From a virus, in the IMG/VR virus record IMGVR_UViG_3300042691_010023, positions 3,917-67,916 of that record: DNA of 64,000 nucleotides, one strand, 5' to 3'. The position numbers and the translations under genes are program-made. The notes beneath the pieces are model-generated. The model saw only the letters and a list, made by a program, of their open reading frames with translations, did no database searches and was not told where the DNA came from. Below, in pieces: positions 3,255 through 62,620 of this stretch; positions within the stretch are counted from its first letter, which is position 1; each line of letters starts with the position of its first letter.

Positions 3255-3256
3255 TT

Positions 3257-3285
3257 TTGACTTTTAGTATAAATGTTATTATAAT
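3257..3285 (+). promoter_or_regulatory. host-RNAP-type promoter upstream of clpP
   Basis: TTGACT-N17-TATAAT near-consensus, 6 nt before the clpP ATG. Confidence 0.7.
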
Positions 3286-3291
3286 TAATGT

Positions 3292-3906
3292 ATGAGTATA
3301 TACGAAGAAAAATCTAATAAACGTCAAATGATAGACGATTCAATTGATTCGCCGTATGAAATTGTTAGTCAACAATTATCAACGCATTTAGATTTACGGG
3401 ATTCAGTAGTTTATCTAAATGATGATATTACTGAAAATACGTTGATTGAATTGATGATACGTGTTCGTGCCATACTTAATAATCGAACCGATAATGATCG
3501 TAAAGATCCTATCAATCTTATCATTAACTCTAACGGAGGTGATGTATATGAAATGTTAGGTATTATTGATTATATCGAGTCATTGTCTGTACCAGTAAAT
3601 ACAATTTGCAGAGGTAGAGCATTTAGTGCTGCTGCTGTAATATTAGCATGCGGTACTGGTATACGTATGGTTAGTAAACGGTCTTGTGTAATGTTCCATG
3701 AATCGATTAGTTTTGCAGATGGCATTAAGGTAAGTGATATGACTGCCTATCTAAACAATCTTAAATCATTAGAGAATGACGTATGTGAGTTGTTAGCTTC
3801 CAAATCTAATAAAAATGCAGATTGGTGGAAACAACAACAGAAAACTGATTTGTTTTTATCGGCAGATCAACTAAAAGAATATAAAATAATTGACGAAATA
3901 ATTTAA
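3292..3906 (+). CDS. clpP: ClpP-family serine protease
   Basis: INLIINSNGGDV, GRAFSAAAVILACG (catalytic Ser), VMFHE (His), TDLFLSA...IIDEI (Asp). Confidence 0.9.
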   Translation: MSIYEEKSNKRQMIDDSIDSPYEIVSQQLSTHLDLRDSVVYLNDDITENTLIELMIRVRAILNNRTDNDRKDPINLIINSNGGDVYEMLGIIDYIESLSVPVNTICRGRAFSAAAVILACGTGIRMVSKRSCVMFHESISFADGIKVSDMTAYLNNLKSLENDVCELLASKSNKNADWWKQQQKTDLFLSADQLKEYKIIDEII

Positions 3907-3910
3907 TACT

Positions 3911-4654
3911 ATGAGTTTAACAGCAGAACAGATACAACAAAATTGGATTGAGTTTCGTAAAAAAGTTAACGAACTATTTCCTACTCGTGCAAAAGAAATA
4001 AATGCCATGTACGATCATTTGGAAGAACGAATGATGATGATGCCAGCGAGTGGCACTGATCACTTTCATAATGCATTTGAAGGTGGCTACATTGATCACG
4101 TGTTACGTGTTATGAATTGTACTGCTAAATTGTATGAGTCGTGGAAAGAAATGGGAGCAGATGTTAGTAACTTTTCATACGAAGAACTAATGTTTGCTGC
4201 TATGCATCATGACTTAGGTAAGGCAGGTTTTCCAGGCGATGGTGAAGAAGTATACATTGTAAATGATTCAGAATGGCACCGTAAGAATCAAGGCAAAATG
4301 TACAAGCATAATTCCAATATTCCATTTACTATGGTACCAGATCTTAGTTTATGGACATTGCAACATTTTGGAATTAAAACTTCTTGGAATGAAACACAAG
4401 GCATACGAATACATGATGGAATGTATGATGATGCTAATAAAGCTTATTTTGTATCTCGTAGTGCCGATTCAAAATTACGTACCAATTTACCGTTGATTTT
4501 GCACCATGCGGATCATATGGCAGCTCGAATTGAATATGAAATGTGGCGCGACAAACGTCCGTCAGCAAAAACAACTATACCTAATACTAACACTAGAAAG
4601 TCAATGTCATCTAATACTACAGCATTTGATATTTCTAAGATTTTTGGAGAATAA
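3911..4654 (+). CDS. HD-domain phosphohydrolase (YhaM-like HD domain)
   Basis: PAS..HFHNAFEGGYIDHVL, HHDLGK, IHDG, LHHADH. Confidence 0.85.
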   Translation: MSLTAEQIQQNWIEFRKKVNELFPTRAKEINAMYDHLEERMMMMPASGTDHFHNAFEGGYIDHVLRVMNCTAKLYESWKEMGADVSNFSYEELMFAAMHHDLGKAGFPGDGEEVYIVNDSEWHRKNQGKMYKHNSNIPFTMVPDLSLWTLQHFGIKTSWNETQGIRIHDGMYDDANKAYFVSRSADSKLRTNLPLILHHADHMAARIEYEMWRDKRPSAKTTIPNTNTRKSMSSNTTAFDISKIFGE

Positions 4655-7337: not shown

Positions 7338-7360
7338 ACATATTTATTTAAAAGGATATT

Positions 7361-18311: not shown

Positions 18312-18351
18312 TTTGAATTAGGTATATATTTATTTAAAATAAGGATATAAC

Positions 18352-29600: not shown

Positions 29601-32600
29601 TTTCCCCTGCCGGCAAAGGAAGTGGAGTCACCATAACCGATTATCCAATAGTTACATTACGTACTGAAGATGTATTAACGTTTGTTGCTGCAAATGCTAA
29701 CGCTAACGATTGGTATGCAATTGCAGGTACATTGCAGCCGTTTTCTGGTTACGAATTTAAACGCGGAGTTGATGTATATAATACATTTTTAGTTACAGGA
29801 TCTAATAGTCGAATACGATTTAGAGACGACGATGGCGTTCTGCAATTTGAAGTTCGAAGAGGCACGACTGGAGACTTTGCGGATAAAACACAAATTACTA
29901 TTAACGATATACCGGCAATAGATTCGTTAGATCCATCAGACTACAATGTAGTTATTCGTAGACTTAGTAACGGTCGTCTATACGAAACATCATCGTTGGC
30001 ATTTGGCGGTGGCGGTGGCGGTGGAGGAGATGTAACTGATGTAAATGCTGGATTGGGTATATCTGTAGATACACCTGGCGGTCCGGTTGTTGAAGTGAGT
30101 TTAAATACTGCATCAGCACATTTCCGTAACGGAGTATTTAAATTAACCGGCAGTTTACTTACAACCGAATCGTTTAATACATGGACCGGATCTAACCTTA
30201 GTCAATTTGCAGGTACGGCTTCGTTTGCTACAACTGCGTCATATGTGACAGGTTCAATCTATAACAGTTCAAATTTAGCATTAAGTGCTTCGTATGCAAT
30301 AACAGCAAGCTATGCATTAAATGCAGGAACGTCAACGCCGGCTCCTAGTGATACATTTATTCAATATAATCAAGGCGACATATTTGGCGCTAGTGAGTAT
30401 TTTAGATATCAATACATCTCACAGAGCTTACTACACGGTAATGAGGTAAGTGCGTCCGGAGAGTTTTCATTTGCTCACGGCTCGAGTTCGATAGCATTAG
30501 GTCCGTATTCACATGCAGAGGGACGTGAAAATGAGTCTTTTGGTAAAGCAAGTCATACCGAAGGATATAGAAGTAGAACGTACTATCCAGGAGCTTTCTC
30601 AGGATCATTAACAAATGGTACAGGTAGCTTACTGAGTTATTATGCAAATGTCGCCTCAGCATTCACTGTAGGTAATACATTCATTCTTAAAACTGTAGCA
30701 GAGGAATTTGCAACTAACCAGATAGCCACTATAACTTCTGCATCCTACGATCCAGGAACAGGTCAAACATCGTTCTATTTGGATGCTCCAATTGGCGGCG
30801 GAGATTCTATTCTAGTAATAGATACTGGACTATGGGGGTGGGATGATTCCACTACTTCGCCATCCGGAGTTCCTGTCATTGCCAGCGCTGGCAATCAAAA
30901 CATTGGCGGAGATGGAGCTCACGCTGAAGGATTCTTGACAATTGCATTTGGTTCATTATCGCATGCTGAAGGTTACGGAGGCCAGGCTATAGGAGCATTT
31001 GCGCATGCTGAAGGAGTTAATACGATTGCATATGGTCTCATAAGTCACGCTGAAGGAGATGGCACTTTTACAGTAGGTGCAAGTTCACATGCTGAAGGTA
31101 CTGGTACGCAGACTTGGGCTGACTATTCACATGCCGAAGGCAATGCTACTAAAACATTTGGTACTGCAGCAGGATCACATGCCGAAGGTAAAGAAACAGT
31201 AACTATTGGTCAATATTCGCATGCTGAAGGAGTTAATGCTCGGTCAATTGGATATGCATCACATGCTGAGGGTACTGGCCGTTCTGGTACATTGTATTTA
31301 TACTCGGCATCTTTAAGTACAGATAATTCATCTCCTCCGGGCGGAGTAGCTATAGTGACATTGGCATCGTCATACGGCAACGTAACATCAAAATTTACAG
31401 TAGGAAATTATTTATATTTTAACGGTACTCCTACTACTATCGGCAACACCCCAGCACTCAGTAATTACGTAGAGGTATCTCTAGCACGTATCACATCAGT
31501 TGTATGGAACAATCCGGTTACTATAATTACTTTAGGCGACGCATCAGCTAATGGTGTTGATCTTCTATATCAAGCCGCAATTGTTAATGTTGCACCATAT
31601 AATCCAAGCGCAGGATTAAATACATGGATTCAGCCAGACCCTGATGTCGCAGGCACCCCATACGGCAATGATTCTAATAGTCCATGGGCTGGCGATCAAA
31701 TTGGTAATAGCAACGGTGCGCATGCTGAAGGGTTAGATACATTAGCGATTGGTCAATATTCACATGCTAGCGGTCAAGGATCAGTGACATTAGGTAATTA
31801 TTCTCAAGCTAGTGGATACTATACCATGGCTATAGGTCAACATGATCATGCGGAAGGGTTTGCGACAAAAGCTATTGGGTATGGGGCACATGCTGAAGGA
31901 ATACGAACAATTGCCATGGATACGTCGCATGCTGAAGGATATGAAACAACTGCTATCGGCAGTGGACACTCGGAAGGCCAGGGTACATATGCCGCCAACA
32001 GCGGCCATGCGGAAGGTTATTATACACGGGCTGTAGGTGTAGCTGCTCACTCAGAAGGAGGTTATACCACCGCATCAGCAAATTATTCTCACGTGGAGGG
32101 GGGCTATACCAAAACATATGCCACTTATGCGCATGCGGAAGGATCTGGGTCAATTGCTGGTAACATTGGTGGTGCTGGAATAGCTTCACACGCTGAAGGA
32201 GTATTCACACAGACAACAAATATAGGAGCTCATTCCGAAGGAAGATATACTACCGCATCAGGTATATATTCACATGCTGAAGGAAGTAGTTCCGTAGCAT
32301 TCGGTACGGCATCACATGCTGGAGGTTTACATACAATAGCATCAGCATCTTATGCTACAACAATAGGTCAATACAATAAGCATAACAATACAACTGCTTT
32401 ATTTACAATAGGTGACGGCGCTAGTAATACAGATAGGCATGATTTATTAAATGCTGGAATTGGGTATGTTCAAATATCCGGATCTGCTGTAGTGTCAAGT
32501 AGCTTGGAAACAATAGGACTTTCAAGAGTTACCGGATCAATGATTGTATCTAATAGTTTACAATTGATTGGTATCGGTATAGTTACAGGTTCGTTTATTA

Positions 32601-37946: not shown

Positions 37947-37973
37947 CATATTTATATACAAATAGGATAACAA

Positions 37974-43274: not shown

Positions 43275-44849
43275 ATGTCTCAAAAATCGTTAAAAGAAAT
43301 TATAGCAGATGAGTATAAAAAATGTGCCACTGACCCGGTACATTTTATGAAAAAATATTGTATTATTCAACATCCTACCAAAGGAAAAATATACTTTCAT
43401 TTATACCCATTCCAAGAAGATGTTTTGCGTAATATGCAAAACAATAGATATTCGGTTATATTAAAATCTCGACAATTAGGTATTTCTACATTATCTGCAG
43501 GATATGCATTATGGTGCATGTTGTTTAAACAAGACTTTAATATCTTAGTATTAGCTACTACTCAAGACGTTGCTAAAAACTTGGTAACTAAAGTACGTGT
43601 AATGCACGAAAATTTACCTATCTGGTTAAAAGGTAAGTCGATTGAAGATAATAAATTGTCGTTACGTTTTAAAAACGGATCACAAATTAAAGCCGTTTCT
43701 AGTACAGGCACATCAGGTCGTTCTGAAGCATTATCATTACTAATTATTGATGAGGCTGCATTTATACGTAACATTGAAGAAATTTGGAAATCAGCTCAGC
43801 AAACATTGGCAACCGGTGGAGGATGTATTGCATTATCGACACCTAACGGTACAGGTAATTGGTTTCATCAAACATGGGTAGATGCAGAATCAGGCGGGCA
43901 ATTTAAGCCAATTAAACTACACTGGACGGTACATCCGGAACGTGATGAAAGTTGGCGTATAGAACAAACGGAGTTGTTAGGTGAAAAGGGAGCTGCACAA
44001 GAATGTGATTGTGACTTTATTTCATCTGGACATACTGTTATTGATGGTCCTATACTGCAATGGTATGATCAAACATATATTAAAGATCCAATCGAACGTA
44101 GAGGATTTGATGGTAATTATTGGATATGGGAATATCCAGACTATTCAAAAAATTACGCAGTAGTAGCTGACGTAGCTCGAGGCGATGGTTCTGATTATTC
44201 TGCATTCCATGTAATCGATGTAGATAATTTAACACAAGTAGCAGAATATCGTGGTAAGATAGGTACTACAGAATACGGTAACATGTTAATGTCAGTAGCT
44301 ACAGATTATAATAATGCGCTGTTAGTTATAGAAAATGCCAATGTCGGTTGGGCCGTTATCCAAGTTGTAATTGATAGAGGCTATAGTAATTTATATTATT
44401 CATATCGACAAGACGCTTATATAGACGAAAATATACATCTTACTAAGGGATATGATCTTAAAAGTAAGTCAGACATGGTACCAGGATTTTCTACAACTAG
44501 TAAAACACGTCCATTGACCATTTCAAAATTAGAAACGTATTTACGAGAAAAAAGTCCGGTTGTACGAAGTAAACGTTTGTTAGATGAGTTGTTTGTATTT
44601 ATATGGAACGGTTCTAGGGCAGAAGCACAACGTGGATATAATGATGATTTGGTAATGTCATTCGCTATAGCATTATGGATACGAGACACGGCATTACGTC
44701 TCAAACAACAAGGTATGGACTTATCACGTAAGGCATTAAATCATTTCGGAAAGACTAATCCAGGAGTGTATACAATATCACCTCAACAACATCAAACATG
44801 GACATGGAAAACTCCTGGCGGAGATGAAAGTTTAACCTGGCTGACCTAA
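43275..44849 (+). CDS. terminase large subunit (T4 gp17-like)
   Basis: LYPFQ, KSRQLGIST Walker A, LLIIDEAAF Walker B, STPNG, ADVARG.G.DYSA, DDLVMS. Confidence 0.97.
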   Translation: MSQKSLKEIIADEYKKCATDPVHFMKKYCIIQHPTKGKIYFHLYPFQEDVLRNMQNNRYSVILKSRQLGISTLSAGYALWCMLFKQDFNILVLATTQDVAKNLVTKVRVMHENLPIWLKGKSIEDNKLSLRFKNGSQIKAVSSTGTSGRSEALSLLIIDEAAFIRNIEEIWKSAQQTLATGGGCIALSTPNGTGNWFHQTWVDAESGGQFKPIKLHWTVHPERDESWRIEQTELLGEKGAAQECDCDFISSGHTVIDGPILQWYDQTYIKDPIERRGFDGNYWIWEYPDYSKNYAVVADVARGDGSDYSAFHVIDVDNLTQVAEYRGKIGTTEYGNMLMSVATDYNNALLVIENANVGWAVIQVVIDRGYSNLYYSYRQDAYIDENIHLTKGYDLKSKSDMVPGFSTTSKTRPLTISKLETYLREKSPVVRSKRLLDELFVFIWNGSRAEAQRGYNDDLVMSFAIALWIRDTALRLKQQGMDLSRKALNHFGKTNPGVYTISPQQHQTWTWKTPGGDESLTWLT

Positions 44850-44871
44850 TATTTATAAATAAATAATATAC

Positions 44872-46767
44872 ATGGCAGACACTTCATTACAGGCCAGATT
44901 AAAACGGCTATTTTCTACTAATGTAATTGTAAGACGTATCGCTAAAAATCGTTTAAAGGCGGTTGATACAAATAGGTTACAATCTAACGGCTCATTATCT
45001 AGTAACAGTTATATCGATAGATTTACTGGATTACATAGAGGTCAGTCAGGTTATGCTACATATAACCAAACATACAATTTTCATTCTTCTAAACTAGAAT
45101 TGTTTACAGATTACGAAGCTATGGATATGGATCCTATTATAGCATCGGCATTAGATATTTACGCAGACGAATCTACAGTTAAAAATGCAGAAGGTGATAC
45201 ATTATCAATTTCTACATCTAACGAAGAAGTTCGTAAAGTACTGCATAATTTATTTTACGATATTATTAATATTGACTATAATCTATGGCCATGGGTACGT
45301 AATGCGTGTAAGTACGGCGATTTCTTTTTACATTTAGATATTGAAGACGAATTAGGGGTTATTAACGTAACTCCATTATCAGCATACGAAGTTCGTCGTG
45401 AAGATGGATATGATCCAGAAAATCCATATGCATATCGATTTATACTCGAAGGTCCTAGTGGTACATATGCTAATTTTGCCGGTAAGCCTAACCGTACTGA
45501 ATTTGAAAGTTTTCAAATGGCACACTTTCGTTTGTTATCTGATACAAACTTCTTACCGTACGGTAAGTCAATGATCGAGTCAGGACGTAAATTGTTTAAG
45601 CAATTGTCATTAATGGAAGATGCGATGCTTATTCAACGTATTATGCGTGCCCCAGAACGTCGCGTTTTTAAAATTGATGTAGGTAATATTCCACCACATG
45701 AAGTAGATAACTATATGAACCAAATCATGAGCAAGATGAAAAAGGTTCCATATATGAATGAACAGACAGGTGACTACAACCTTAAGTTTAATCTGCAAAA
45801 CATGATGGAAGATTATTATCTGCCAGTTCGTGGCGGAGAGTCTGGTACTGCAATTGATACATTAGCTGGATTAACTAATGAAGGCCAAATTGAAGATATT
45901 GAATACTTACGTAATAAATTGCATGCTGCATTAAAGATACCTAAAGCATTTTTAGGATATGATGAGGGAGTAGAAGGTAAAGCTACATTAGCAGCTGAAG
46001 ATGTACGTTTTGCTCGTACAATTGAACGTATTCAAAAAATATTTGTATCTGAATTAACTAAGATTGCAATCGTTCATTTATATGCACAAGGATTTCGTGA
46101 TGAAGATTTGATTGGGTTCTCATTAGAACTAAATAATCCTTCGTTGATTTATGAAAAGCAACAATTAGAATCTTTAACTACAAAAGTAGAATTGGCAGGT
46201 AAATTACGCGAATCGCAATTGTTTTCGGAACAATGGATTTACGAAAACATATTTGGTATGACTGAGTATGAATGGAAGTCTCAACAAGATAATGTAATAG
46301 AAGATCTTAAAACTCAGTTCCGTCGCAAACAAATTGCTGATGAAGGTAATGACCCTAAAAAGACAAATATGAGTTTTGGTACTCCGCATGACATTGCATC
46401 AATGCACGTAGCTACCAAAGGAGAATTGTTGCCAGGTATGGAACAGGAACATGTTGCTGGCCCTGGACGTCCTAAAGATATTAGTACATGGGGTAAGCAT
46501 TCTAGTCCGCATGGACGTGATCCATTAGGTGCTAAACAACTCGGAGCTACATTCAATAACAGTCCTAAAACAGATCCGTTGCAACATACATTTCGTAAAA
46601 GTTCTCCATTAAGCATAGAATCGATTGAGTCTAAAGCATTAATTAAAACATTGAATACTAAATTTAAAAGTTCTAGTATAATACAAGAGTCGTTAGATAA
46701 AAGCGCTGTCGATCCAGATGCGGGTACATTATTAGACGAATCGCAATTATTATCACTAAATGACTAA
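44872..46767 (+). CDS. portal protein (T4 gp20-like)
   Basis: MEDAMLIQRIMRAPERRVFKIDVGNIP, MMEDYYLPVRG, IEDIEY..KLHAALKIPK. Confidence 0.97.
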   Translation: MADTSLQARLKRLFSTNVIVRRIAKNRLKAVDTNRLQSNGSLSSNSYIDRFTGLHRGQSGYATYNQTYNFHSSKLELFTDYEAMDMDPIIASALDIYADESTVKNAEGDTLSISTSNEEVRKVLHNLFYDIINIDYNLWPWVRNACKYGDFFLHLDIEDELGVINVTPLSAYEVRREDGYDPENPYAYRFILEGPSGTYANFAGKPNRTEFESFQMAHFRLLSDTNFLPYGKSMIESGRKLFKQLSLMEDAMLIQRIMRAPERRVFKIDVGNIPPHEVDNYMNQIMSKMKKVPYMNEQTGDYNLKFNLQNMMEDYYLPVRGGESGTAIDTLAGLTNEGQIEDIEYLRNKLHAALKIPKAFLGYDEGVEGKATLAAEDVRFARTIERIQKIFVSELTKIAIVHLYAQGFRDEDLIGFSLELNNPSLIYEKQQLESLTTKVELAGKLRESQLFSEQWIYENIFGMTEYEWKSQQDNVIEDLKTQFRRKQIADEGNDPKKTNMSFGTPHDIASMHVATKGELLPGMEQEHVAGPGRPKDISTWGKHSSPHGRDPLGAKQLGATFNNSPKTDPLQHTFRKSSPLSIESIESKALIKTLNTKFKSSSIIQESLDKSAVDPDAGTLLDESQLLSLND

Positions 46768-48844: not shown

Positions 48845-49650
48845 AAAGTTTTTTAGATTGGAAATATTGGTCAGCACAATCTCATATTAAGCAATTAATA
48901 GAATCTAAAGGTATAGAAGTTGCGCGGCAACAATTTATACGTGAGTCTAATAAAGCATTATGGGATGATCCGATCATTTTAGTAGAGCATTCCGCTCCAG
49001 GATTATCTGTAAGTAATAATAATAGCGCCGGCGCCGGATCTACACCTAGTATCATAGGATTTAGTTCACAGATAGATAGATTTACATGGGCTAGTGGTAT
49101 AACTAATAATATTACTGGATCGCACCCATTAAGTGCTAGTATACATGGTAACTATGTAGACATTACTACATATGATGGTACTGTAGATTATTCATATAAT
49201 CATGTTAATTCTTCAAAAACTTTTAGATTATATATAACATCAGCATCTAATTTTACAGCAACTAATGTTAATGGTATCGATGGTGTAATTACTGCATCAT
49301 ATGGTTTCGGTACTGAAACTACTAATGTAACAGGTAGTATTTTATTTAAATGGGCAGATGCATTAGCTAATCAAACAGCTACCGCGGTAGTTGCAGGATT
49401 TACTAACACAATAGCTCCATCTACGTTATTTACTCTGACATTAGCCGCGGGTAGCGGATCGTTAACTGTAACACATGTTAATGAAGGCGGCGTACCTGGC
49501 ATGTCAACTACTTTGACATCTGCAACTGCATCTGTAGCTGTAATAACTGCCGGTACAGATCGATATTATAATAATACAAATTATTATGATGGAGCTACTT
49601 TATTTAATGGCTCACAATCTCCGTATACAACATTGACACGTAGAGGATAA
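48841..49650 (+). CDS. hypothetical virion protein
   Basis: 269 aa, Thr/Ser/Gly beta-rich. Confidence 0.6.
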   Translation: MKSFLDWKYWSAQSHIKQLIESKGIEVARQQFIRESNKALWDDPIILVEHSAPGLSVSNNNSAGAGSTPSIIGFSSQIDRFTWASGITNNITGSHPLSASIHGNYVDITTYDGTVDYSYNHVNSSKTFRLYITSASNFTATNVNGIDGVITASYGFGTETTNVTGSILFKWADALANQTATAVVAGFTNTIAPSTLFTLTLAAGSGSLTVTHVNEGGVPGMSTTLTSATASVAVITAGTDRYYNNTNYYDGATLFNGSQSPYTTLTRRG

Positions 49651-49651
49651 A

Positions 49652-50257
49652 ATGAACAAACAATTATTAATAGATTATAATGTATTTGAAGTAACGCCTC
49701 AACAAATAAACGAATCGTTAGCTAATAACGGGGGTCGTTTAATTGTACAAGGAGTACTTCAACGTGCTGAAGCTAAGAATCATAACGGACGTGTTTATCC
49801 AATGGAAACATTGATGCGTGAAGCTAAAAAGTATAATGAAAGTTATATAACAGAGCGTCGTGCATTAGGAGAACTAGATCATCCAGATTCTTCAGTTGTT
49901 AATTTAAATAACGTTAGTCATAACATTTTAGAAATGGCTTGGCGTGGCAAAGATTTAGTAGGTACTGTAGAAGTACTTCCTACACCTGCAGGTAATATAC
50001 TTAAAGCATTATTCCAATCAGGAATTAAATTAGGTATTTCATCGCGCGGTTTAGGTTCAGTAAAAGAAGTAATGCGCGAAGCAGGTAGTGCAATGGAAGT
50101 ACAGCCTGACTTTGAATTGATAGCATTTGATTTTGTTAGTAACCCTTCAACACATGGAGCATTTTTATCTCCAGTAAATGAATCGGTAGACAAAACAATG
50201 AACACAAAATATAATAATATTAATCGTTTAATTTCAGAAATTATAAGGGAGTTTTAA
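49652..50257 (+). CDS. prohead core protease (T4 gp21-like)
   Basis: NHNGRVYP, ALGELDHP, VSH, TPAGNIL, LGISSRGLGS, DFVSNPS. Confidence 0.95.
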   Translation: MNKQLLIDYNVFEVTPQQINESLANNGGRLIVQGVLQRAEAKNHNGRVYPMETLMREAKKYNESYITERRALGELDHPDSSVVNLNNVSHNILEMAWRGKDLVGTVEVLPTPAGNILKALFQSGIKLGISSRGLGSVKEVMREAGSAMEVQPDFELIAFDFVSNPSTHGAFLSPVNESVDKTMNTKYNNINRLISEIIREF

Positions 50258-50258
50258 T

Positions 50259-50525
50259 ATGGCACTCGTAGATTTAGCGAACACATCACAATTAGGTCCT
50301 AATAATCCTATAGGAGCTAAAGGCACTGGATATACCACTGGAGCAAATGCAGATCCGTTGGAAAATATGCAGTTAGGTAATCCTAAGACAGGACAAGGTA
50401 TATTTGATAGCTTAACAGATGCGGCAGGTGCTAGTTTGTTAGGTCCTACTAATCCAGTTGGTCAAAAAGGTAATGGTACTGTTATTGATCCGTTCGGTAA
50501 TATTCCATCTGAATTAACTAACTAA
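50259..50525 (+). CDS. small protein with internal duplication
   Basis: SQLGPNNPIGAKGTG / SLLGPTNPVGQKGNG. Confidence 0.6.
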   Translation: MALVDLANTSQLGPNNPIGAKGTGYTTGANADPLENMQLGNPKTGQGIFDSLTDAAGASLLGPTNPVGQKGNGTVIDPFGNIPSELTN

Positions 50526-50536
50526 TACGTAAAACT

Positions 50537-50896
50537 ATGAAAAGTTTAAAAGATAAATATAATCAACTATTTAATGGTAAGCCTATGTCTAATGACAAAG
50601 GGCTGATCAAAGAAAGTTTTGGTAAGGCTGGTATTGCTACTGGTAAACGTACTGTTAATGAAGCAGAGCCTGGTTCTGATCGTCGTAAAGAATTTCAATC
50701 GCAACTAGATGAAATTATGAACATGTTGGGAGACTTAACTGACGAATTTGGATATGAATTGGAAATGACTGCTGACGCAGAAGGTTTACCAGAATATCGT
50801 CAATGGCTTACGCAGTTAGGACGTTATTCATCAGCTGCAGAAAAAAATCTTAAAGGTCTTGGTAAGATAATTAAACAAGCTTACGGAGGTTTATAA
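50537..50896 (+). CDS. hypothetical head-region protein
   Basis: 119 aa; IKE/VNE sites. Confidence 0.6.
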   Translation: MKSLKDKYNQLFNGKPMSNDKGLIKESFGKAGIATGKRTVNEAEPGSDRRKEFQSQLDEIMNMLGDLTDEFGYELEMTADAEGLPEYRQWLTQLGRYSSAAEKNLKGLGKIIKQAYGGL

Positions 50897-51312
50897 TGTC
50901 TAAGCATTGGGAAACGAAAATGTTGAAAAACATTTTAAATGAAAAGTATCTTCGCGAAGAAGAAGATGATATGCCCGAAATGACTAAAGAAGATAAAAAG
51001 GCTTTTTTAGAAGCAGTTTCTAATTATCATCGTTTGGGCGAAATGATTTATCGTGCCAACACGTTAAAAGAAGTTGCTAGTACATTAGGCGGTATTGTTG
51101 AAATGGCTGAAAATGTAACATTACAAGAATCAGAACATTGGTTTGATAATGTAACAGTTTCTCGTCATATGAAACAATTGCAAGAGGCTTATAAAGTATT
51201 TGAAAAGACTGCCGGTGAAATGTCAGGTATGCAACAGCGTTTAGAAGCTGCTTATGAAGATATCGGTACAGTACTTAACAAGTATTATAAAGTAAATGAG
51301 GCATTGAAATGA
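50896..51312 (+). CDS. hypothetical head-region protein
   Basis: 138 aa helical, GGAGG upstream. Confidence 0.7.
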   Translation: MSKHWETKMLKNILNEKYLREEEDDMPEMTKEDKKAFLEAVSNYHRLGEMIYRANTLKEVASTLGGIVEMAENVTLQESEHWFDNVTVSRHMKQLQEAYKVFEKTAGEMSGMQQRLEAAYEDIGTVLNKYYKVNEALK

Positions 51313-51545
51313 AAGCAATAGAATTTAAAAAACTAATCCGCGAAGAAGTTCGTAAGGTATTAAAAGAAGCATATCGTAAACCAGATGACAATTTAGATAT
51401 TCTAATTAAACTACTTAAGCGTAAAAAAGTAAACGAGGTAGTAGAATTACTTGAAACAGTTAAAGAGGGATTAGAATTTGATGATTTAGCTACAGCTCTT
51501 GATGAAGCTATAGAAAATCTATTAGACGATGGTGGGCTGGATTAA
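51309..51545 (+). CDS. putative internal head protein (LIREE motif)
   Basis: MKAIEFKKLIREEVRKVLKE. Confidence 0.6.
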   Translation: MKAIEFKKLIREEVRKVLKEAYRKPDDNLDILIKLLKRKKVNEVVELLETVKEGLEFDDLATALDEAIENLLDDGGLD

Positions 51546-51580
51546 GTAAAGACTAATAATATAATTAATTGATATTATTT

Positions 51581-51609
51581 TTGTTTTTGTAAATTAAAGT
51601 TATTATATT
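51581..51609 (+). promoter_or_regulatory. putative host-RNAP promoter of bS21
   Basis: TTGTTT-N17-TATATT with GTTATTATA core like the promoters at 3257 and 22481. Confidence 0.5.
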
Positions 51610-51630
51610 GTATTAAATTAAACAAGTTAT

Positions 51631-51888
51631 ATGAATTACATGAATAAAAAACAAAAACATTTTGAGAGTATCATTCCAGGTACTCCTAATGGTACTCGAG
51701 TAGTGCGTGTAAATGATCGTGCTGATTTATCATTTGCATTGCGTCGTTGGAAGAAGCAATTGAAGGATGGTAAGGTTTTAGAACAATTGAAAGACCGTAC
51801 TTATTTTGAAAAACCTAATGTAACGCGTCATCGACAAAATGAACGTGCATTGTTTTTAGCCCAACGTGCTACTGAACGAAATTCTTAA
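51631..51888 (+). CDS. rpsU: phage-encoded 30S ribosomal protein bS21
   Basis: DLSFALRRWKKQL...VLEQLKDRTYFEKPNVTR matches the bS21 pattern (ALRRFK...R..YEKP); ~20-aa N-terminal extension. Confidence 0.85.
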   Translation: MNYMNKKQKHFESIIPGTPNGTRVVRVNDRADLSFALRRWKKQLKDGKVLEQLKDRTYFEKPNVTRHRQNERALFLAQRATERNS

Positions 51889-51907
51889 ACTAAGAAAAGT
51901 TTAAATG

Positions 51908-51934
51908 AAAAGGTGTCTTTACGGCACCTTTTTT
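51908..51934 (+). terminator. intrinsic terminator after bS21
   Basis: AAAAGGTGTC-tttac-GGCACCTTTTTT hairpin with U-tract. Confidence 0.8.
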
Positions 51935-52084
51935 ACTATCTAAGGATTGTTTTATTTTTCATAGGCATATATATATTTGTTATACGATACTGTATTAGTC
52001 TAATATACAGTCACTCAACAATATTTAATCTATCTATTAAGATTACCAATAATCTTATTTCCGAATTTAATAAGAGGAGAACTC

Positions 52085-52951
52085 ATGAACAATCTGTTAA
52101 AAGAAGCAATCGCAGATGCTAAAGCCGTGCGCGAAACAGCAATGGCGAATGCTAAGATTGCATTAGAAGAGGCATTCACTCCACGTCTTCAAAGTATGTT
52201 ATCTGCTCGTTTAGCTGAAGAGGCTGAAGAGGATACAATGGAAGAAGAAGAGGAAGAAATGGAAATGTCTACTGAAGGCTACGAAAACGACGAAGATGGT
52301 ACACCAGATCCAGGTCCAGCTATCGAAGAAGAAGAGGAAGGATCTGAAGATTTAGATCTTGAATCTATCATTCGTGAATTGGAAGGCGAAATGGAAGAAC
52401 CTACCATGGAAGAAGAGGAAGAAGCTGATGCTGAAGTATCAGTAGAACCTGCCATGGAAGAGGAAGAAGATGTTAACATCGAAGAAATCATTCGTGCACT
52501 TCGTGAAGAAGATGATGAAACCGAAGAAGAGCCAGTAACTGAAGGTGAAGATGAAGATGAAGACCCAGTAGCCGAAGGCGAAGAGGAATCAGAAGATCTT
52601 AAAGAAGCTTATCGTGTTATTCGCTTTATGAAGTCTAAGCTCAACGAAGTAAACCTTCTAAATGCAAAATTGTTATTTTCAAACAAATTATTTAGAAACT
52701 ATTCTTTAAATGAATCACAAAAGATGAAAGTTATTGAAAACTTTGATCGTGCCGCTTCAATCCGTGAAGTAAAATTAGTTTATAGCACTTTATGTGAATC
52801 ATTTGGTAGCGTAGTCGCTAAGAAAAAACAACAAATTAAAGAAAGCTATGCTTCAAAGCCTGCCGGCAAATCTACAGCTCCTAAGAAAGAAATTCTTAGC
52901 GAAGGATTTGAATTGGCAGCTCGTTGGAAGAAATTAGCTAATCTTAAGTAA
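52085..52951 (+). CDS. prohead core scaffolding protein (gp22-like)
   Basis: Very acidic EEE-rich middle, immediately upstream of the MCP, AGGAG SD. Confidence 0.85.
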   Translation: MNNLLKEAIADAKAVRETAMANAKIALEEAFTPRLQSMLSARLAEEAEEDTMEEEEEEMEMSTEGYENDEDGTPDPGPAIEEEEEGSEDLDLESIIRELEGEMEEPTMEEEEEADAEVSVEPAMEEEEDVNIEEIIRALREEDDETEEEPVTEGEDEDEDPVAEGEEESEDLKEAYRVIRFMKSKLNEVNLLNAKLLFSNKLFRNYSLNESQKMKVIENFDRAASIREVKLVYSTLCESFGSVVAKKKQQIKESYASKPAGKSTAPKKEILSEGFELAARWKKLANLK

Positions 52952-52972
52952 AAAAAACAAAGAGGAATCAAA

Positions 52973-54682
52973 ATGAATTTAAATTCTTTATTACCTCATG
53001 AAGCACAAGCTACCCAGCATTCAGCAGCTTTAGCCCTTGAAAAGAAGTGGCAGAAGACTGGTTTGTTGGAAGGCATTGCTAATGAGAATGACCGTCGTGG
53101 TATGGCCGTACTTTTGGAAAACCAAGCAAAACAATTGGTAACAGAAGCTAACGCTACTACACAAAACCAAGCTAACGCTGAGCAATGGGCTGGCGTAGCT
53201 TTACCATTGGTACGTCGTATCTTTGCAGAAATTGCTGCTAAAGATTTTGTTAGCGTTCAACCAATGAATCTTCCATCAGGACTCGTGTTCTTCTTGGATT
53301 TCAAATATGGTACTGCACAAGGTACCAATGGTTTTGGTAATTCAACCGGTAATGACTTTTTAACTGGTCAAGGCCGTACATCTCAGAATGATTCTGTGTT
53401 CGGTGTTACTGATGCAGATCGTGGTACTAGTGCTCCTAGCGAAGGTCTTTACGGCGCTGGTCGTTTTGGTTATACCATTAACGACGTTAATGCTGTATTA
53501 CCTGCCGCAGATTTTAATACTGGATCATATAATCCATTTACCAATACATTTGCTCAATTGAGTAGGAATTTGAACGGTGCAGAGTTAGATATATTTACTA
53601 ATTTTAATTCTGAATTTTCTGCATCTGCAGCGGTTGGGTTGAAAACATTCCAAGTACTTCAAGTAGCTACTGGATCAGCTACTGGTTTATCTAATGCAGA
53701 TTTAAAAGGCGTACGTGCATTTAACGTATCAGGTTCTGGATTTACTACCATGTACCCAGAATTTACTACGACAAAAGGCGCTTATATTTACTTCTTAGTA
53801 GAAACTAATGCAGCTACTCCAGTAATTCCAGTTGCAGCTAACTCAGTAGAAGTTGTTTACCATAAGCAGCCAAATGATCAAACTCGTGGTGACTTTGAAG
53901 ATAATGATGGCTCATCTACTGCATTAAGCATTCCAGAAATTAATTTGGAACTTCGTAGTGAAGCTATTGTTGCTAAGACACGTAAGTTAAAGGCAGTATG
54001 GAGTCCTGAATTTGCACAAGATCTTAATGCTTATCATAGCATTGACGCTGAAGCAGAATTAACTAGCATGTTGTCAGAATACATTTCACAAGAAATTGAT
54101 CTTGAAATCTTAGACATGTTGATTCAAAACGCACAAACGACCGAGCGTTGGTCTGCACAAATTGGGTATGTTTTTGATCCGTCAACTAACACATTTATCA
54201 ACGGTGCAGCTGCAGGTCAAGCTTATAATCAAGGTACTTGGTTCCAAACTCTTGGAACTAAAATCCAAAAAGTGAGCAATAAGATTCACCAATTGACTAT
54301 GCGCGGTGGAGCAAACTTCTTAGTATGTTCTCCATCTGTAGCAACTATCCTCGAATCTATTCCAGGATATGCTGCTGATACAGACGGTGATAAGATGCAG
54401 TTTGCGATGGGCGTACAGAAGATTGGCGCTATTAATAGCCGCTTCCAAGTATATAAGAATCCATACATGACTGAAAATACAATCTTGATGGGTTATCGTG
54501 GTAGCCAGTTCTTGGAAACAGGTGCAGTATATGCTCCTTATGTTCCATTGATCATGACACCATTAGTGTACGATCCGACTAACTTCACTCCACGTAAGGG
54601 TGTAATGACTCGTTACGCGAAGAAAATGTTACGTCCTGAATTCTATGGTAAAGTATATGTACACGCTCTCAACCGTGTATAA
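52973..54682 (+). CDS. major capsid protein (T4 gp23-like)
   Basis: LLENQ, PLVRR, VSVQPM..PSGLVF, AKTRKLKA.WS.E.AQDL.A.H.IDAEAEL, YAPYVPL, F.P..G.MTRY. Confidence 0.97.
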   Translation: MNLNSLLPHEAQATQHSAALALEKKWQKTGLLEGIANENDRRGMAVLLENQAKQLVTEANATTQNQANAEQWAGVALPLVRRIFAEIAAKDFVSVQPMNLPSGLVFFLDFKYGTAQGTNGFGNSTGNDFLTGQGRTSQNDSVFGVTDADRGTSAPSEGLYGAGRFGYTINDVNAVLPAADFNTGSYNPFTNTFAQLSRNLNGAELDIFTNFNSEFSASAAVGLKTFQVLQVATGSATGLSNADLKGVRAFNVSGSGFTTMYPEFTTTKGAYIYFLVETNAATPVIPVAANSVEVVYHKQPNDQTRGDFEDNDGSSTALSIPEINLELRSEAIVAKTRKLKAVWSPEFAQDLNAYHSIDAEAELTSMLSEYISQEIDLEILDMLIQNAQTTERWSAQIGYVFDPSTNTFINGAAAGQAYNQGTWFQTLGTKIQKVSNKIHQLTMRGGANFLVCSPSVATILESIPGYAADTDGDKMQFAMGVQKIGAINSRFQVYKNPYMTENTILMGYRGSQFLETGAVYAPYVPLIMTPLVYDPTNFTPRKGVMTRYAKKMLRPEFYGKVYVHALNRV

Positions 54683-54707
54683 TCTTAACTAAATACTATT
54701 AAAAGAG

Positions 54708-54732
54708 GGGAGACTTAGGTCTCCCTTTTTTT
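54708..54732 (+). terminator. intrinsic terminator after major capsid gene
   Basis: GGGAGAC-ttag-GTCTCCC-TTTTTTT. Confidence 0.9.
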
Positions 54733-54775
54733 ATATCTCAAGCTACGTAGATATTTATATTAAATAGGATAACGT

Positions 54776-55441
54776 ATGCCAAGAGAGAACATCGACCGTA
54801 ATCCTCCTAAAACTGATATTAAATTTTCTGTTACATTGTCTAACGAACAGAAAGCAGCAAAGGAGCTCATTCTTCAAACACCTATTAATTTTATTATAGG
54901 TAAAGCCGGATCTGGCAAAACAATGTTAGCTGTACAAATTGCACTGGACATGTTTTTTAAACGCACTGTCAATAAAATAGTTATAACAAGGCCAACTGTA
55001 TCAACTGAAGATAACGGATTTTTACCGGGTACAGAAAAAGAAAAAATGGAGCCATGGTTAGTACCAATACGTAGTAATATGCGTAAAGTATATAACAAAC
55101 CAGACTTATTACAAAAATTAGAAACGGAAGATAGTATTGAATGGGTATCATTAACTCACTTTCGTGGACGTACATTTGAAAATGCAGTATGTGTTATAGA
55201 CGAATTTCAGAATTTAACTAAACAACAATTGCATATGTGTTTGGGAAGATTAGGGGTTAATTCTACTTTGATATTTACAGGTGATAGTCAACAAATTGAT
55301 TTGAAATATAAAAATGATTCGGCATTTCACGAAATTCCTAAAATAGAAAAGTCTAAGTATGTAAATAAAATTATACTGCTTGATAATCATAGACATGCAG
55401 CGCTTGACGAAATATTTAAAATGTTAAGTGAATATAGTTGA
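54776..55441 (+). CDS. phoH: PhoH-family ATPase
   Basis: GKAGSGKT, ITRP, GFLPG..EKMEPW, FRGRTF, IDEFQN, GRLG, TGDSQQIDL. Confidence 0.93.
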   Translation: MPRENIDRNPPKTDIKFSVTLSNEQKAAKELILQTPINFIIGKAGSGKTMLAVQIALDMFFKRTVNKIVITRPTVSTEDNGFLPGTEKEKMEPWLVPIRSNMRKVYNKPDLLQKLETEDSIEWVSLTHFRGRTFENAVCVIDEFQNLTKQQLHMCLGRLGVNSTLIFTGDSQQIDLKYKNDSAFHEIPKIEKSKYVNKIILLDNHRHAALDEIFKMLSEYS

Positions 55442-60454: not shown

Positions 60455-60478
60455 CATATTTATAACAAAGGAAAAGTT

Positions 60479-60817: not shown

Positions 60818-62620
60818 ATGGCAGAAAAAATTGTTTCGCCTGGCGTGTTTACCAATGAAATTGACCAGTCGGCATTGCCAGCAGCAATTGCCGGTATCGG
60901 CGCAGCGATAATTGGTCCTACTCAGCGCGGGCCTGCAAATATTCCGACTACAGTAACTAGTTATTCAGAATTTGTTCAAACGTTTGGAGGAGTATTTACA
61001 TCGGGCTCCTTACGCGGAGAAAATACCTTTAAATATTTAACGAACCATTCAGCACAAGAATATCTTAAATATGGAGATACATTAACAGTTGTTCGTGTAT
61101 TAGCTGGAGCGTATGCTAATGCATTTTCCAATGTTGTTAGCGCACATACTGCTAGTGACGGCACTGCGCATGCCCCGTCATTCCGATTAACCTTGCTATC
61201 AGCAGGGGGAGTTGAAAATTCAGGTCAGTATGCCCGTGCTATTAGCGGTTCAGGTACGGGATCTGATGAAGGCGTAGGTCAAAAATTAATATCGGGATCA
61301 GAACAAAATCTTCGTTGGGAAGTTGCAAATGTAAGTAATACTAAAGGTACATTTACATTATTGCTTCGCCGAGGCGATGACATTGCAAATCGTAAAATTA
61401 TTGTAGAACAGTATAATAATTTAACGCTAGATCCAAATTCTCCAAATTACATTGCACGTGTAATTGGCGACACTGCTTATACACTAAGAGGTTCGGGGAC
61501 AGATCAACCATATTTCCAAATATCTGGTTCATATCCTAATCGTTCTAAATATGTACGTGTAACAGTATATAAAAATACAGTTAACTGGTTTGACCAAAAC
61601 GGATCACGTCGCAGTTCAGACTTTACCGGTAGTTTGCCTCAAGCAGTTTCTGGTACATTTGCCGGCGGAGATGATGGGTCAGTAGCACATCCAAAACGTT
61701 TTTACGAAAACATTTATAAAGGCGATAGTCAACAACAAGGATTTGATATGTCAAATTCAACATATCGTCTACCATATTCAGATGCTATCAAACTTCTTAA
61801 AAACCAAGATGACTACGACTTTAATCTATTAACATTGCCAGGTCTAGTACATAGCAATGATGATGCTAAAATTATTATTAGTGAAGCTCAACAAATGGTT
61901 GAATCTCGCGGTGATGCATTTTTAATTGTAGATCCTGCTAAGTACGGTACAACATTATCTGATATAATATTAGAGGCTGATGAACTTAACAGTAATTATG
62001 TAGCAGAATATTGGCCATGGGTATTGATATCAGATCGTGATTTAATGCGTAATGTTTGGGTACCGGCCAGTGTATTAGTACCTGGAGTATATGCATTTAA
62101 TGACCGAGTAGCTGCCCCATGGTATGCACCTGCAGGTTTAAATCGTGGTGGTATTGAAGTAGCATTACGTACTGAACGCAAACTTAACCAAAACAATCGT
62201 GATGATCTTTATAGTGCCAATGTTAATCCAATCGCTAGCTTCCCTAATCAAGGCGTTGTAGTATATGGACAAAAAACAATGCAAAAGAAGGCATCAGCAC
62301 TTGACCGTGTAAATGTACGTCGCTTATTAATCTCTGCTAAAAAGTTTGTTGCATCAACTACTAAGTATTTGATATTTGAACAAAATACAGCAGCTACCAG
62401 AAATCGTTTCTTAAGTATTGTTAATCCATACTTTGACAATGTTCAGCAACGTCAAGGATTGTATGCATTTAAAGTTGTAATGGACGAAAAAATGAATACA
62501 CCTGAAGTAGTTGACCGTAACGAATTGCGTGGTGCAATTTATCTGCAACCTACCAAGACTGCAGAATTTATAATTATTGATTTCAATATTCTTCCGACAG
62601 GCGCTGCTTTCCCAGAATAG
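60818..62620 (+). CDS. tail sheath protein 1 (gp18-like)
   Basis: SPGVFTNEID, GPANIPT, WYAPAGLNRG, NVNPI, YGQKT, RVNVRRLL, PTKTAEFI. Confidence 0.95.
   Translation: MAEKIVSPGVFTNEIDQSALPAAIAGIGAAIIGPTQRGPANIPTTVTSYSEFVQTFGGVFTSGSLRGENTFKYLTNHSAQEYLKYGDTLTVVRVLAGAYANAFSNVVSAHTASDGTAHAPSFRLTLLSAGGVENSGQYARAISGSGTGSDEGVGQKLISGSEQNLRWEVANVSNTKGTFTLLLRRGDDIANRKIIVEQYNNLTLDPNSPNYIARVIGDTAYTLRGSGTDQPYFQISGSYPNRSKYVRVTVYKNTVNWFDQNGSRRSSDFTGSLPQAVSGTFAGGDDGSVAHPKRFYENIYKGDSQQQGFDMSNSTYRLPYSDAIKLLKNQDDYDFNLLTLPGLVHSNDDAKIIISEAQQMVESRGDAFLIVDPAKYGTTLSDIILEADELNSNYVAEYWPWVLISDRDLMRNVWVPASVLVPGVYAFNDRVAAPWYAPAGLNRGGIEVALRTERKLNQNNRDDLYSANVNPIASFPNQGVVVYGQKTMQKKASALDRVNVRRLLISAKKFVASTTKYLIFEQNTAATRNRFLSIVNPYFDNVQQRQGLYAFKVVMDEKMNTPEVVDRNELRGAIYLQPTKTAEFIIIDFNILPTGAAFPE

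Follow-up and report, generated by a model that had tools for sequence, protein, structure and literature searches.

An N-Terminally Extended Phage bS21 and Its Association with Shine-Dalgarno-Led Genes in a Family of T4-Like Freshwater Viruses

Introduction

A stretch of viral DNA carrying a gene for the ribosomal protein bS21 among its head genes, and Shine-Dalgarno (SD) motifs before about half of its genes, raises the question of whether the two features are connected. The stretch, referred to here as the window, comprises 64,000 nucleotides (nt), bases 3917-67916 of the 67,916-base IMG/VR virus record IMGVR_UViG_3300042691_010023 (CheckV completeness 38%), and is a fragment of a freshwater T4-like myovirus, kin of Flavobacterium phage immuto. 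Judged from sequence, the host is probably a member of the Bacteroidota. Ribosomes of Bacteroidia sequester the anti-SD sequence in a pocket formed by bS21, bS18 and bS6 (PMC7797042), and for ribosomes lacking bS21 the anti-SD is described as liberated, to the benefit of the SD-led rpsU mRNA (PMC7797042, PMC9976891). Start sites in Flavobacterium johnsoniae depend on unstructured, A-rich leaders (PMC6847099).

An initial annotation of the window had proposed that a phage bS21, made early, replaces the host protein and frees the anti-SD, thereby biasing ribosomes towards SD-led late mRNAs, and this interpretation is partly supported by the analysis presented here. The bS21 gene, its own transcription unit, the SD signal, the association of the two among related viruses and the switch in SD status of orthologous genes are established. 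A link between bS21 and SD use is likely from the sequence comparisons, and the best overall explanation, which we hold tentatively and just short of calling it probable, is that an extended bS21 produced from an SD-less unit lets SD-led phage mRNAs initiate preferentially.

A bS21 Gene in Its Own Transcription Unit

The bS21 gene lies between the genes for the prohead protease (49652) and the major capsid protein (MCP; 52973), inside a terminase/portal/protease/MCP block, and its unit consists of the following elements:

51580..51611, + strand: promoter-like element, TTTG (51580-51583), 20 nt, then TATATTGT (51604-51611)
51612..51630, + strand: bS21 leader, SD-less, A/U-rich and unstructured
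51631..51888, + strand: bS21 gene, 85 amino acids (aa), with a 23-aa basic N-terminal extension and a canonical two-helix core
51907..51935, + strand: intrinsic terminator of the bS21 unit, with an 11-bp stem, a 5-nt loop and a U-run

The open reading frame (ORF) matches the Pfam family Ribosomal_S21 (PF01165) over residues 25-73 with an E value of 2.8e-10 and 40.2 bits against a cut-off of 27, and it also corresponds to PHROG 21469, ribosomal protein S21. A PF01165 match is likewise obtained from the full 67,916-base record. Twenty-four bacterial bS21 sequences from the PDB align at E <0.003 across both helices, with residues 24-76 of the query matching residues 3-55 of the F. johnsoniae chain 7jil_z; this chain and 9i5v_9, identified as P. 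gingivalis from the listing of PMC12123416, align to the window protein ungapped with an offset of 21. With the single window sequence the top PDB match was a 'bS21B' chain (29.8 bits), 7jil_z scoring 24.5 bits. A profile of the 31-member clade placed 9i5v_9 (51.4 bits) and 7jil_z (49.3 bits) first, the next match scoring 40.7, and its alignment extends across the position of F. johnsoniae Tyr54, in the C-terminal '..A.Y..' segment. The N-terminal 23 residues are absent from the solved Bacteroidota chains of 63-64 aa and are kept at the protein level among homologues that are 63-98% identical and likewise in 31 members of the clade.

The gene had been described initially as its own unit with a TTG-N20-TAT promoter, an SD-less A-rich leader and an intrinsic terminator, and all of these are present as written. 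On sequence grounds the TATATTGT element is a candidate promoter. The arrangement TTTG..TTGAAA..TTATATT(A/G) recurs 5' of bS21 in 41 distinct related loci, and the box differs from the late-type ATATTTAT box of the clade, which occurs within 90 nt of bS21 in only one of 41 distinct loci. The sigmaA consensus of Bacteroidota consists of a -33 TTG and a -7 TAnnTTTG (PMC9723704); TATATTGT departs from the latter at its last two positions, with TATATTAA or TATATTAG found in relatives, and fits the TAnnTTGY variant known from F. psychrophilum (PMC9723704).

No AGGA, GGAG or GAGG occurs in the bS21 leader, for which the anti-SD duplex energy is 0.0, and the start region (51612-51660) has a folding energy of 0 kcal/mol. 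The terminator has a predicted energy of -13.8 kcal/mol (z -2.9) that none of 200 shuffled sequences equalled, and a hairpin with a T-run is found 16-30 nt 3' of bS21 in 22 of 48 distinct loci, the stem sequences differing between lineages. A simple consensus scan of the window, which missed the bS21 terminator, showed sigma-70-like sites to be no more frequent than chance would give (26, with an expectation of 32.3).

Shine-Dalgarno Motifs in the Window

Genes were defined by our own calls, made without a gene finder, as the first ATG of the longest ORF, taken greedily without overlaps and without use of SD information, and a start was considered SD-led if AGGA, GGAG or GAGG was present at -18 to -4. 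On this basis 34 of the 72 starts are SD-led, as against 95 of 1422 other ATGs (6.7%) and 4.2 +/- 2.0 of 72 for shuffled upstream regions. The mean anti-SD duplex energy dips to -3.2 kcal/mol for segments starting at -12 to -14 and is flat elsewhere, the dip being confined to positions -14 to -5.

The observation made in the initial annotation is confirmed. All 15 starts that it named as SD-led carry the motif, and the exceptions that it listed (13896, 20277, terminase at 43275 and portal at 44872) are motif-free. The genes at 453, 3292, 3911 and 22591, which it had placed directly behind host-type promoters, also lack an SD motif. For clpP (3292) a TTGACT-N17-TATAAT is present, but gene 3911 has none of its own and starts 4 nt past clpP. 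The suggestion that many upstream ORFs end in glycine before an SD motif fared less well; only 3 of 41 tightly packed proteins do so, although about nine have a glycine in the last three residues. One of the first ten genes listed is SD-led, and the 4 kb preceding coordinate 1 holds small ORFs.

bS21 Status and SD Use among Related Viruses

The closest annotated phages by MCP identity are Mel-JY01 (58.8%; PP395634.1, recorded as 'Microcystis phage'), Flavobacterium phage immuto (57.8%) and LR756508 (52.6%), an uncultured 484-kb record which we take to originate from the study of Al-Shayeb et al. Three IMG/VR scans with MCP queries yielded 236 loci, extending up to +/-10 kb, of which 140 were scored. 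Excluded were 5 duplicate fetches, loci that yielded under 8 gene calls or lacked a complete MCP ORF, and those in which bS21 was not matched and the upstream sequence fell short of 5 kb. Using a hidden Markov model, bS21 was located 1.1-1.7 kb upstream of the MCP gene, on the same strand, in 47 of the 80 loci of the first set. In these 47 loci 433 of 878 genes are SD-led, compared with 17 of 224 in the 15 loci lacking bS21 (with at least 2.3 kb upstream) and 48 of 102 in the 18 loci of undeterminable status. Plotted by position, the dip in anti-SD energy is present in bS21-bearing loci and absent from bS21-less loci and from immuto. For all scored loci the distribution was as follows, the 25% mark denoting SD motifs on a quarter or more of the genes:

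Extended bS21 (N-terminal extension of 16 aa or more): 91 loci, of which 89 reach the 25% mark; median SD fraction 0.45
No bS21: 41 loci, of which 1 reaches the 25% mark (L155, 2 of 8 genes); median 0.07
Short bS21: 8 loci, of which 6 reach the 25% mark; median 0.44

Larger genomes gave the same picture. The complete immuto genome has no PF01165 match and SD motifs on 8 of 218 genes; the immuto-like genome G006 (100% complete) has no bS21 and 10 SD-led genes of 229; and G005, from a second bS21-less clade (82% complete), has no bS21 and 4 of 158.

The comparison can be made for individual families, using protein clusters of the first set and counting distinct upstream sequences, with loci that carry bS21 or are of undetermined status given first:

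MCP: SD in 42/47; bS21-less 0/8
Scaffold: SD in 42/43; bS21-less 0/9
Prohead protease: SD in 29/34; bS21-less 0/7
PhoH: SD in 17/29; bS21-less 0/6
Portal: SD in 1/26 (19/26 with a late box); bS21-less 0/8
Terminase: SD in 1/18; bS21-less 0/9
bS21: SD in 0/36; family absent from bS21-less loci

SD status is, therefore, a property of the gene family. The claimed link between bS21 and SD use finds support here, in that bS21-bearing relatives have SD motifs on about half of their genes and bS21-less relatives on 0-20%, and the same orthologous head genes differ between them.

In an MCP tree (FastTree) bS21 presence changes twice and the extension state four times. When 31 rows were analysed in a quick IQ-TREE run, two bS21-less and SD-low clades, the immuto-like one and that of locus L062, each nested among lineages that have an extended bS21 and are SD-high. 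Joining all 11 bS21-less rows was rejected by the approximately unbiased test (delta lnL 39.6, p 0.004), although this group was defined with the tree already in hand. The L062 clade retains hairpin 2 of the structured leader described below for the scaffold-MCP operon but lacks its TTTCC..GAGGAG, and there is no bS21 remnant, the best tblastn match having an E value of 0.02 over 26 aa; taken together, this reads as loss of both features.

The N-Terminal Extension of bS21

On sequence comparison, the refined correlate of SD use is the basic N-terminal extension of bS21 and not residue 75, which had been emphasised initially. Outside a group with canonical bS21, the extension in SD-rich lineages is always 16 residues long or longer and abounds in Lys/Arg and aromatic side chains. 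The bS21 of LR756508 has no such extension, and SD motifs are scarce in that genome (14/217, less than the 12% of its own null). Locus L185 has a 71-aa bS21 with a short N-terminus and SD on 1 of 20 genes, whereas its nearest relatives, at about 60% MCP identity, have long basic extensions and SD on 33-56% of genes.

Two simpler rules were considered and rejected. LR756508 and L185 rule out the presence of bS21 as the sole correlate of SD use, and a lineage with canonical bS21 that is rich in SD motifs rules out the extension as a universal necessity. The latter is a sister lineage (L285, L289, L290, L294, L307, L309, L313, L316 and the 91-kb contig G008) with a bS21 of 71-73 aa at the same syntenic spot.

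The bS21 gene itself is SD-led in none of 41 distinct loci of the first set and in none of the 41 non-canonical bS21 genes of the third set. That the extended type is never SD-led would fit a switch protein made by unmodified ribosomes. In the canonical lineage, where bS21 has 72 aa, no extension and a basic C-terminal tail, the gene is SD-led in 5 of 7 loci.

Tyr54 of F. johnsoniae bS21 stacks on A1534 (PMC7797042), and Phe75 of the window protein occupies this position in the ungapped alignments with 7jil_z and 9i5v_9, in agreement with the initial annotation. The argument built on this replacement nevertheless fails, since Phe is likewise aromatic and the close homologues P0003, P0004 and P0008, like most clade members, have Tyr with the same SD pattern. 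Most lineages have Tyr or Phe here, but in some SD-rich ones the residue is Ala, Arg, Ser or Lys, and this variation excludes it as the SD determinant. An aromatic residue at this position has also been reported for phage bS21 by Chen et al. 2022 (PMC9723584).

Two lineages are of interest in their own right. In Mel-JY01, of which 28% of the genes are SD-led, bS21 has Lys at the Tyr54 position. A sub-lineage of six SD-rich loci (48-67%; L078, L082, L083, L086, L288 and L310) combines an N-terminal extension of 34-66 aa with a further one of about 28 aa at the C-terminus, which ends in ..CW..M/I..K.GA., and has Ala in place of Tyr54.

A tblastn search of a phage collection with bS21 at 1e-3 gave no match, which marks a sensitivity limit because the Pfam model detects the bS21 of Mel-JY01 and LR756508. 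The ESM Atlas yielded viral bS21 clusters only, at 0.88. A peptide-pattern scan of genome contigs returned Oxalobacteraceae only, through a single pattern, and is uninformative as to the origin of the gene. Neither bS18 nor bS6 was detected in any of five SD-using records, leaving bS21 as the sole pocket protein encoded.

Hosts of the Virus Family

A rather unlikely alternative, and the main rival, is that SD-using members infect bacteria that read SD motifs, with their SD-less relatives infecting Bacteroidota, and that bS21 is carried for some other reason. Several findings lend it weight and count against a ribosomal switch. The only relative cultured on a Flavobacterium, immuto, is SD-less, and Mel-JY01 is recorded on Microcystis, a cyanobacterium. 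The sigma-70-like TTGACT-N17-TATAAT of clpP, the one such promoter observed in the window, ends 6 nt before the ATG (3250-3294), so that the mRNA would be leaderless or nearly so, which is odd for a presumed Bacteroidota phage. The MCP family also spans host types, as judged from differences in both promoters and SD use: G008, with its canonical bS21, has SD motifs spread evenly over 41 of 91 genes and sigma-70-like TTGAC-N16-19-TAnnnT boxes (5 forward, 0 reverse), and resembles phages that infect ordinary SD-using bacteria, bS21 being kept at this syntenic spot across host types.

Promoter boxes of the Bacteroidota type give indirect evidence for a host in that phylum, along with the type of bS21 and the culture of one relative, immuto, on a Flavobacterium. 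Intergenic TTG-N17-23-TAnnTTTG boxes occur 14/0 (forward/reverse) in G002, 19/1 in Mel-JY01 and 8/3 in G005, with about 0.4-0.5 expected from shuffled sequences; G002 is 98% complete, carries an extended bS21 and, like Mel-JY01, uses SD motifs. Full boxes are not enriched in G000, G003, G004, G007, G009, G006 or immuto. As G000, G003, G004 and G007 make up the clade of the window itself, the promoter test gives no information on that clade. Counts of 5/2 in G003 and 5/0 in G004 were obtained with a relaxed box, TTTG-N18-22-TAnnTT[TA][GA], which carries little weight, having been defined after the sites were seen. In Mel-JY01 (loci L018-L027) about 19 intergenic boxes of the form TTGCATA..N..TAnnTTTGTA were noted, with 1 on the reverse strand. 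These boxes are of the Bacteroidota sigmaA type, and the recorded host of this phage may deserve a second look.

The host-based alternative is weakened by several considerations. Bacteroidota-type -33/-7 boxes number 14 in G002 and 19 in Mel-JY01, both of them SD-using phages, and the bS21 of the clade appears to be of the Bacteroidota type, given its top two PDB matches and the aromatic side chain that takes the place of Tyr54. An SD-less clade nested within an SD-using clade keeps part of the structured leader, and two phylum jumps would be needed over so short a distance. Moreover, SD use is class-specific in phages with extended bS21 (0/27 and 1/18 genes in two regions of G002) and uniform in G008, and the extended bS21 is never SD-led (0/82) as opposed to 5/7 for the canonical gene in the sigma-70 lineage.

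Late-Type Promoters and SD-Led Genes

The initial annotation had contrasted SD-less early genes with SD-led late ones. The contig carries 23 copies of ATATTTAT, followed by an A-rich stretch, on the + strand and one on the - strand; 18 of them lie 21-44 nt before a start, and there is no conserved -35 element. Late promoters of the T4 type consist of a single A/T-rich -10-like box without a -35 element. The ATATTTAT box agrees with this description, being strand- and position-specific, and is probably, on sequence evidence, the late promoter of a gp55-type sigma factor. Intergenic copies occur 127/1 (forward/reverse) in bS21-bearing loci, 36/0 in bS21-less loci, 10/0 in immuto and 14/1 in Mel-JY01. 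Those of interest in the window are:

54751..54758, + strand: ATATTTAT box before SD-led phoH (54776)
1465-1472, 7340-7347, 18326-18333, 37948-37955, 44849-44856 and 60456-60463: further ATATTTAT boxes
44872-46767, + strand: portal gene, late without SD, with the late-type box at 44849-44856
43275..44849, + strand: large terminase gene, without SD (PHROG 2)
49652..50257, + strand: prohead core protease gene, SD-led (PF03420)

An early/late division of SD use is apparent as a trend only. In the window 12 of 17 late-box genes are SD-led as against 2 of 8 other genes after a gap (Fisher p = 0.08). In G002, which also contains the two SD-poor regions of 0/27 and 1/18 mentioned above, the proportions are 28/75 for late-box units, 19/119 for units with Bacteroidota-type boxes and 3/42 for other genes (Fisher p 0.001 for the box classes), and in Mel-JY01 they are 33/78 for late-type and 29/102 for host-type units (p = 0.059). 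Portal and terminase are late yet SD-less, and the motifs therefore appear to mark mainly high-copy head proteins and not lateness as such.

The Structured Leader of the Scaffold-MCP Operon

A spacer of 196 nt (51889-52084) between bS21 and the following scaffold-like gene forms a conserved structured leader, as judged from 31 related loci, and the operon contains:

51972..51979, + strand: TATATTTG box at the head of the scaffold-MCP operon, matching TAnnTTTG exactly (18 aligned intergenic regions)
51989..52011, + strand: leader hairpin 1 of the scaffold-MCP mRNA (RNAalifold, 31 sequences)
52038..52057, + strand: leader hairpin 2, followed by a near-invariant TTTCC (52058-52062)
52074..52079, + strand: strong SD GAGGAG of the scaffold-like gene (duplex energy -9.0)
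52085..52951, + strand: acidic scaffold-like protein, 288 aa (ORF; no Pfam or PHROG match)
52962..52966, + strand: SD GAGGA of the MCP gene (duplex energy -5.9)
52973..54682, + strand: gp23-type MCP (PF07068, E 1.3e-77)

The product of 52085..52951 is presumed to be a scaffold from its position and composition, and the gene is syntenic with that preceding the MCP gene in immuto. The TATATTTG box sits in a conserved ATATATATwwTTG block, and a ATATTTAT box precedes the operon in only one of 43 loci. Compensatory changes were found in 8 of 12 leader pairs overall. The four stem pairs of hairpin 1, which also appears in the single-sequence fold, are changed on both sides in 1, 14, 10 and 6 sequences, and three of the seven pairs of hairpin 2 show compensatory changes (3, 11 and 7 sequences). 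A near-invariant CTTATTTCC can pair with the SD of the scaffold leader, and in the minimum free energy fold TTTCC pairs with the SD GGAGA. The structured leader is missing or altered in bS21-less relatives. A scan of leader and terminator against Rfam gave no family at threshold, with sub-threshold chance matches on the terminator only.

Of the sampled words of the region, 11-13% occur in six river metatranscriptome runs. Contigs from four of these runs, all from relatives and 90-99% alike, span the scaffold and MCP genes together with a portion of bS21 (within 49600-55000); neither timing nor level nor 5' ends can be read from such contigs, and bins without coverage carry no weight. Three of them start at 51999-52014 beside adaptor-like letters, which is at most a hint of an RNA 5' end within hairpin 1.

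The elaborate structure of this leader, with a TTTCC that can pair with the SD, hints at layered regulation and calls to mind a further interpretation, which we consider very improbable, that the GGA/GGAG boxes are sites for a translational regulator, or elements of mRNA stability or processing, and not partners of the anti-SD. T4 RegA provides a precedent for such a regulator. The motifs, nonetheless, match the anti-SD core and peak at -14 to -5 in hundreds of unrelated genes, they also occur at starts lying inside upstream coding sequences, and no regulator has been identified.

A Possible Mechanism

Bacteroidia retain a functional anti-SD although almost no host mRNA uses it. We infer that the host belongs to the Bacteroidota and that the phage protein is incorporated into its ribosomes, where it would alter access to the anti-SD. 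Translation of the bS21 mRNA would fall to the unaltered ribosomes of the host, to which SD motifs are of no use in Bacteroidia, and the protein would then occupy the bS21 site on the 30S subunit, where contacts are mainly with rRNA, with its C-terminal helix and conserved aromatic residue anchoring it like the host protein. Its N-terminal extension might expose the 16S 3' tail for SD pairing, or stabilise the pairing. SD-led phage mRNAs, above all those of high-copy head, scaffold and tail genes, would then initiate preferentially over host mRNAs without SD. The motif would act as a gene-by-gene gain control and not as a strict early/late mark, being present on MCP, scaffold and protease and absent from portal, terminase and bS21. 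A stronger formulation, a real but quite tentative possibility, is that the virus turns SD-blind host ribosomes into SD-reading ones and so creates a private channel for SD-led virion mRNAs, with lineages that lose bS21 also losing the SD motifs of the same genes.

Some of the evidence is less favourable. The aromatic residue retained at the Tyr54 position would, on its own, argue that the anti-SD stays sequestered. The MCP trees provide 2-4 independent pairs, none discordant, and with so few a sign test cannot reach significance, for which 6 or more concordant pairs would be required. Other small gene families are likewise confined to bS21-bearing loci, and bS21 is therefore not the sole correlate. 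Units with host-type promoters are still SD-led for 16% of genes in G002 and 28% in Mel-JY01.

Most of these points can be accommodated by a takeover of the ribosome in which SD motifs play no role, an explanation that we regard as unlikely. The phage bS21 would substitute generally, providing resistance to shut-off, anti-defence or recognition of other leader features, the traits would be co-inherited, and the SD motifs would be read via another factor or be partly inherited baggage. Some bS21-bearing lineages (LR756508, L185 and L291) are SD-low, and the published proposal, in the text of Chen 2022 and Al-Shayeb 2020 available to us, comprises general substitution with late-stage selection and has no SD component. 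Such an account has difficulty with the conservation of SD status by family, at canonical spacing, over MCP divergence down to about 55%, which implies selection and hence ribosomes that read SD motifs. Both bS21-less clades lost the motif from the same orthologues, and no other pocket protein is encoded. In addition, bS21 would be needed in ribosome-scale amounts, yet its gene lacks the signal that marks abundant phage proteins.

Other Features of the Window and Its Relatives

The window has a G+C content of 35.8% and almost all of its genes lie on the + strand. Matches to PHROG and Pfam identify a T4-like virion module including baseplate wedge, tail fibres, large terminase and portal, together with the prohead protease (PF03420), the gp23-type MCP (PF07068) and two tail-sheath genes. 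Non-virion genes encode a UvsE-like endonuclease, ClpP, an HD hydrolase, primase, SbcC and PhoH, and two of them are neighbours:

3292..4654, + strand: clpP (3292-3906) and HD hydrolase (3911-4654), SD-less non-virion genes

The two tail-sheath paralogues are adjacent (60818-62620 and 62656-end), and an ORF of 2907 aa at 26678-35401 has weak PHROG matches only. No tRNA genes were found in the window; tRNA-like sequences, which may be of use in assigning a host, were seen in intergenic regions of the bS21-bearing G003 (about 97.8 kb) and G004 (about 92.5-92.8 kb). A megablast search with 7 kb of the window against the phage collection gave no match, and metagenome runs from lakes, rivers and other freshwater contain sampled words of the region. 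Complete or near-complete relatives are 145-190 kb in size.

Significance and Comparison with Known Systems

To our knowledge, phage-encoded bS21 is the commonest viral ribosomal protein, and published proposals end at the view that it substitutes for the host protein and favours phage mRNAs. If correct, the explanation preferred here would account for why phages capture bS21 in particular and why SD motifs occur in phages whose hosts have none, and it would constitute a new route of takeover in which the initiation rule of the ribosome is altered and host mRNA is not destroyed. An extended bS21 together with class-specific SD motifs could serve as a sequence-only marker for mining thousands of uncultured phages, for which gene callers and host predictors based on ribosome-binding-site motifs will err, and SD-led cassettes combined with phage bS21 might provide an orthogonal expression switch in Bacteroidota.

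The general idea of bS21 substitution is already published, and the link between phage bS21 and the SD motifs of phage genes is new with respect to the literature searched, in which it was not found, supplements aside. Chen et al. 2022 (PMC9723584) proposed that phage bS21 enters Bacteroidetes ribosomes and favours late phage transcripts; the text searched, supplements aside, contains no analysis of SD motifs in phage genes. Their paper refers to more than 14,000 bS21 hits in IMG/VR. Their huge phages are likewise from freshwater and carry bS21, with an aromatic residue at the Tyr54 position, in a terminase/portal/protease/MCP block. They differ in that bS21 lies on the opposite strand, in contrast to the same strand here and in all 47 bS21-bearing loci of the first set, and their complete genomes are 293-331 kb as against the smaller relatives described above. 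McNutt et al. 2023 (PMC9976891) speculated, in the text available, on phage bS21 exchange and host counter-defence and not on SD-led phage genes. For huge phages, Al-Shayeb et al. 2020 (PMC7162821) described an N-terminal extension of rpS21 that is likewise rich in Lys/Arg and aromatic residues; the correlation presented in the text consulted was between lack of SD and phage rpS1, not between SD presence and rpS21.

Pelagibacter phage HTVC008M (PMC6375957), which infects an alphaproteobacterium, is also a T4-like myovirus with a bS21, in this case of 67 aa. According to McNutt 2023 (PMC9976891) this bS21 is taken up into E. coli ribosomes; the term 'Shine-Dalgarno' does not occur in the text of Mizuno et al. 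2019 (PMC6375957). In Francisella tularensis, bS21 paralogues similarly generate ribosome heterogeneity that changes which mRNAs are translated (PMC9578407, PMC12262407), but that case is cellular, involving paralogues and not viral replacement, and no link to phylum-wide SD blindness was noticed in the portions of these papers considered. A further parallel is F. johnsoniae itself (PMC7797042, PMC9976891), where the same protein family, with the same Tyr54 position, is proposed to decide by its occupancy whether the anti-SD can be used. There, the absence of bS21 frees the anti-SD and rpsU is SD-led; here, the presence of an extended bS21 is proposed to free it, its own gene being SD-less and other phage genes SD-led.

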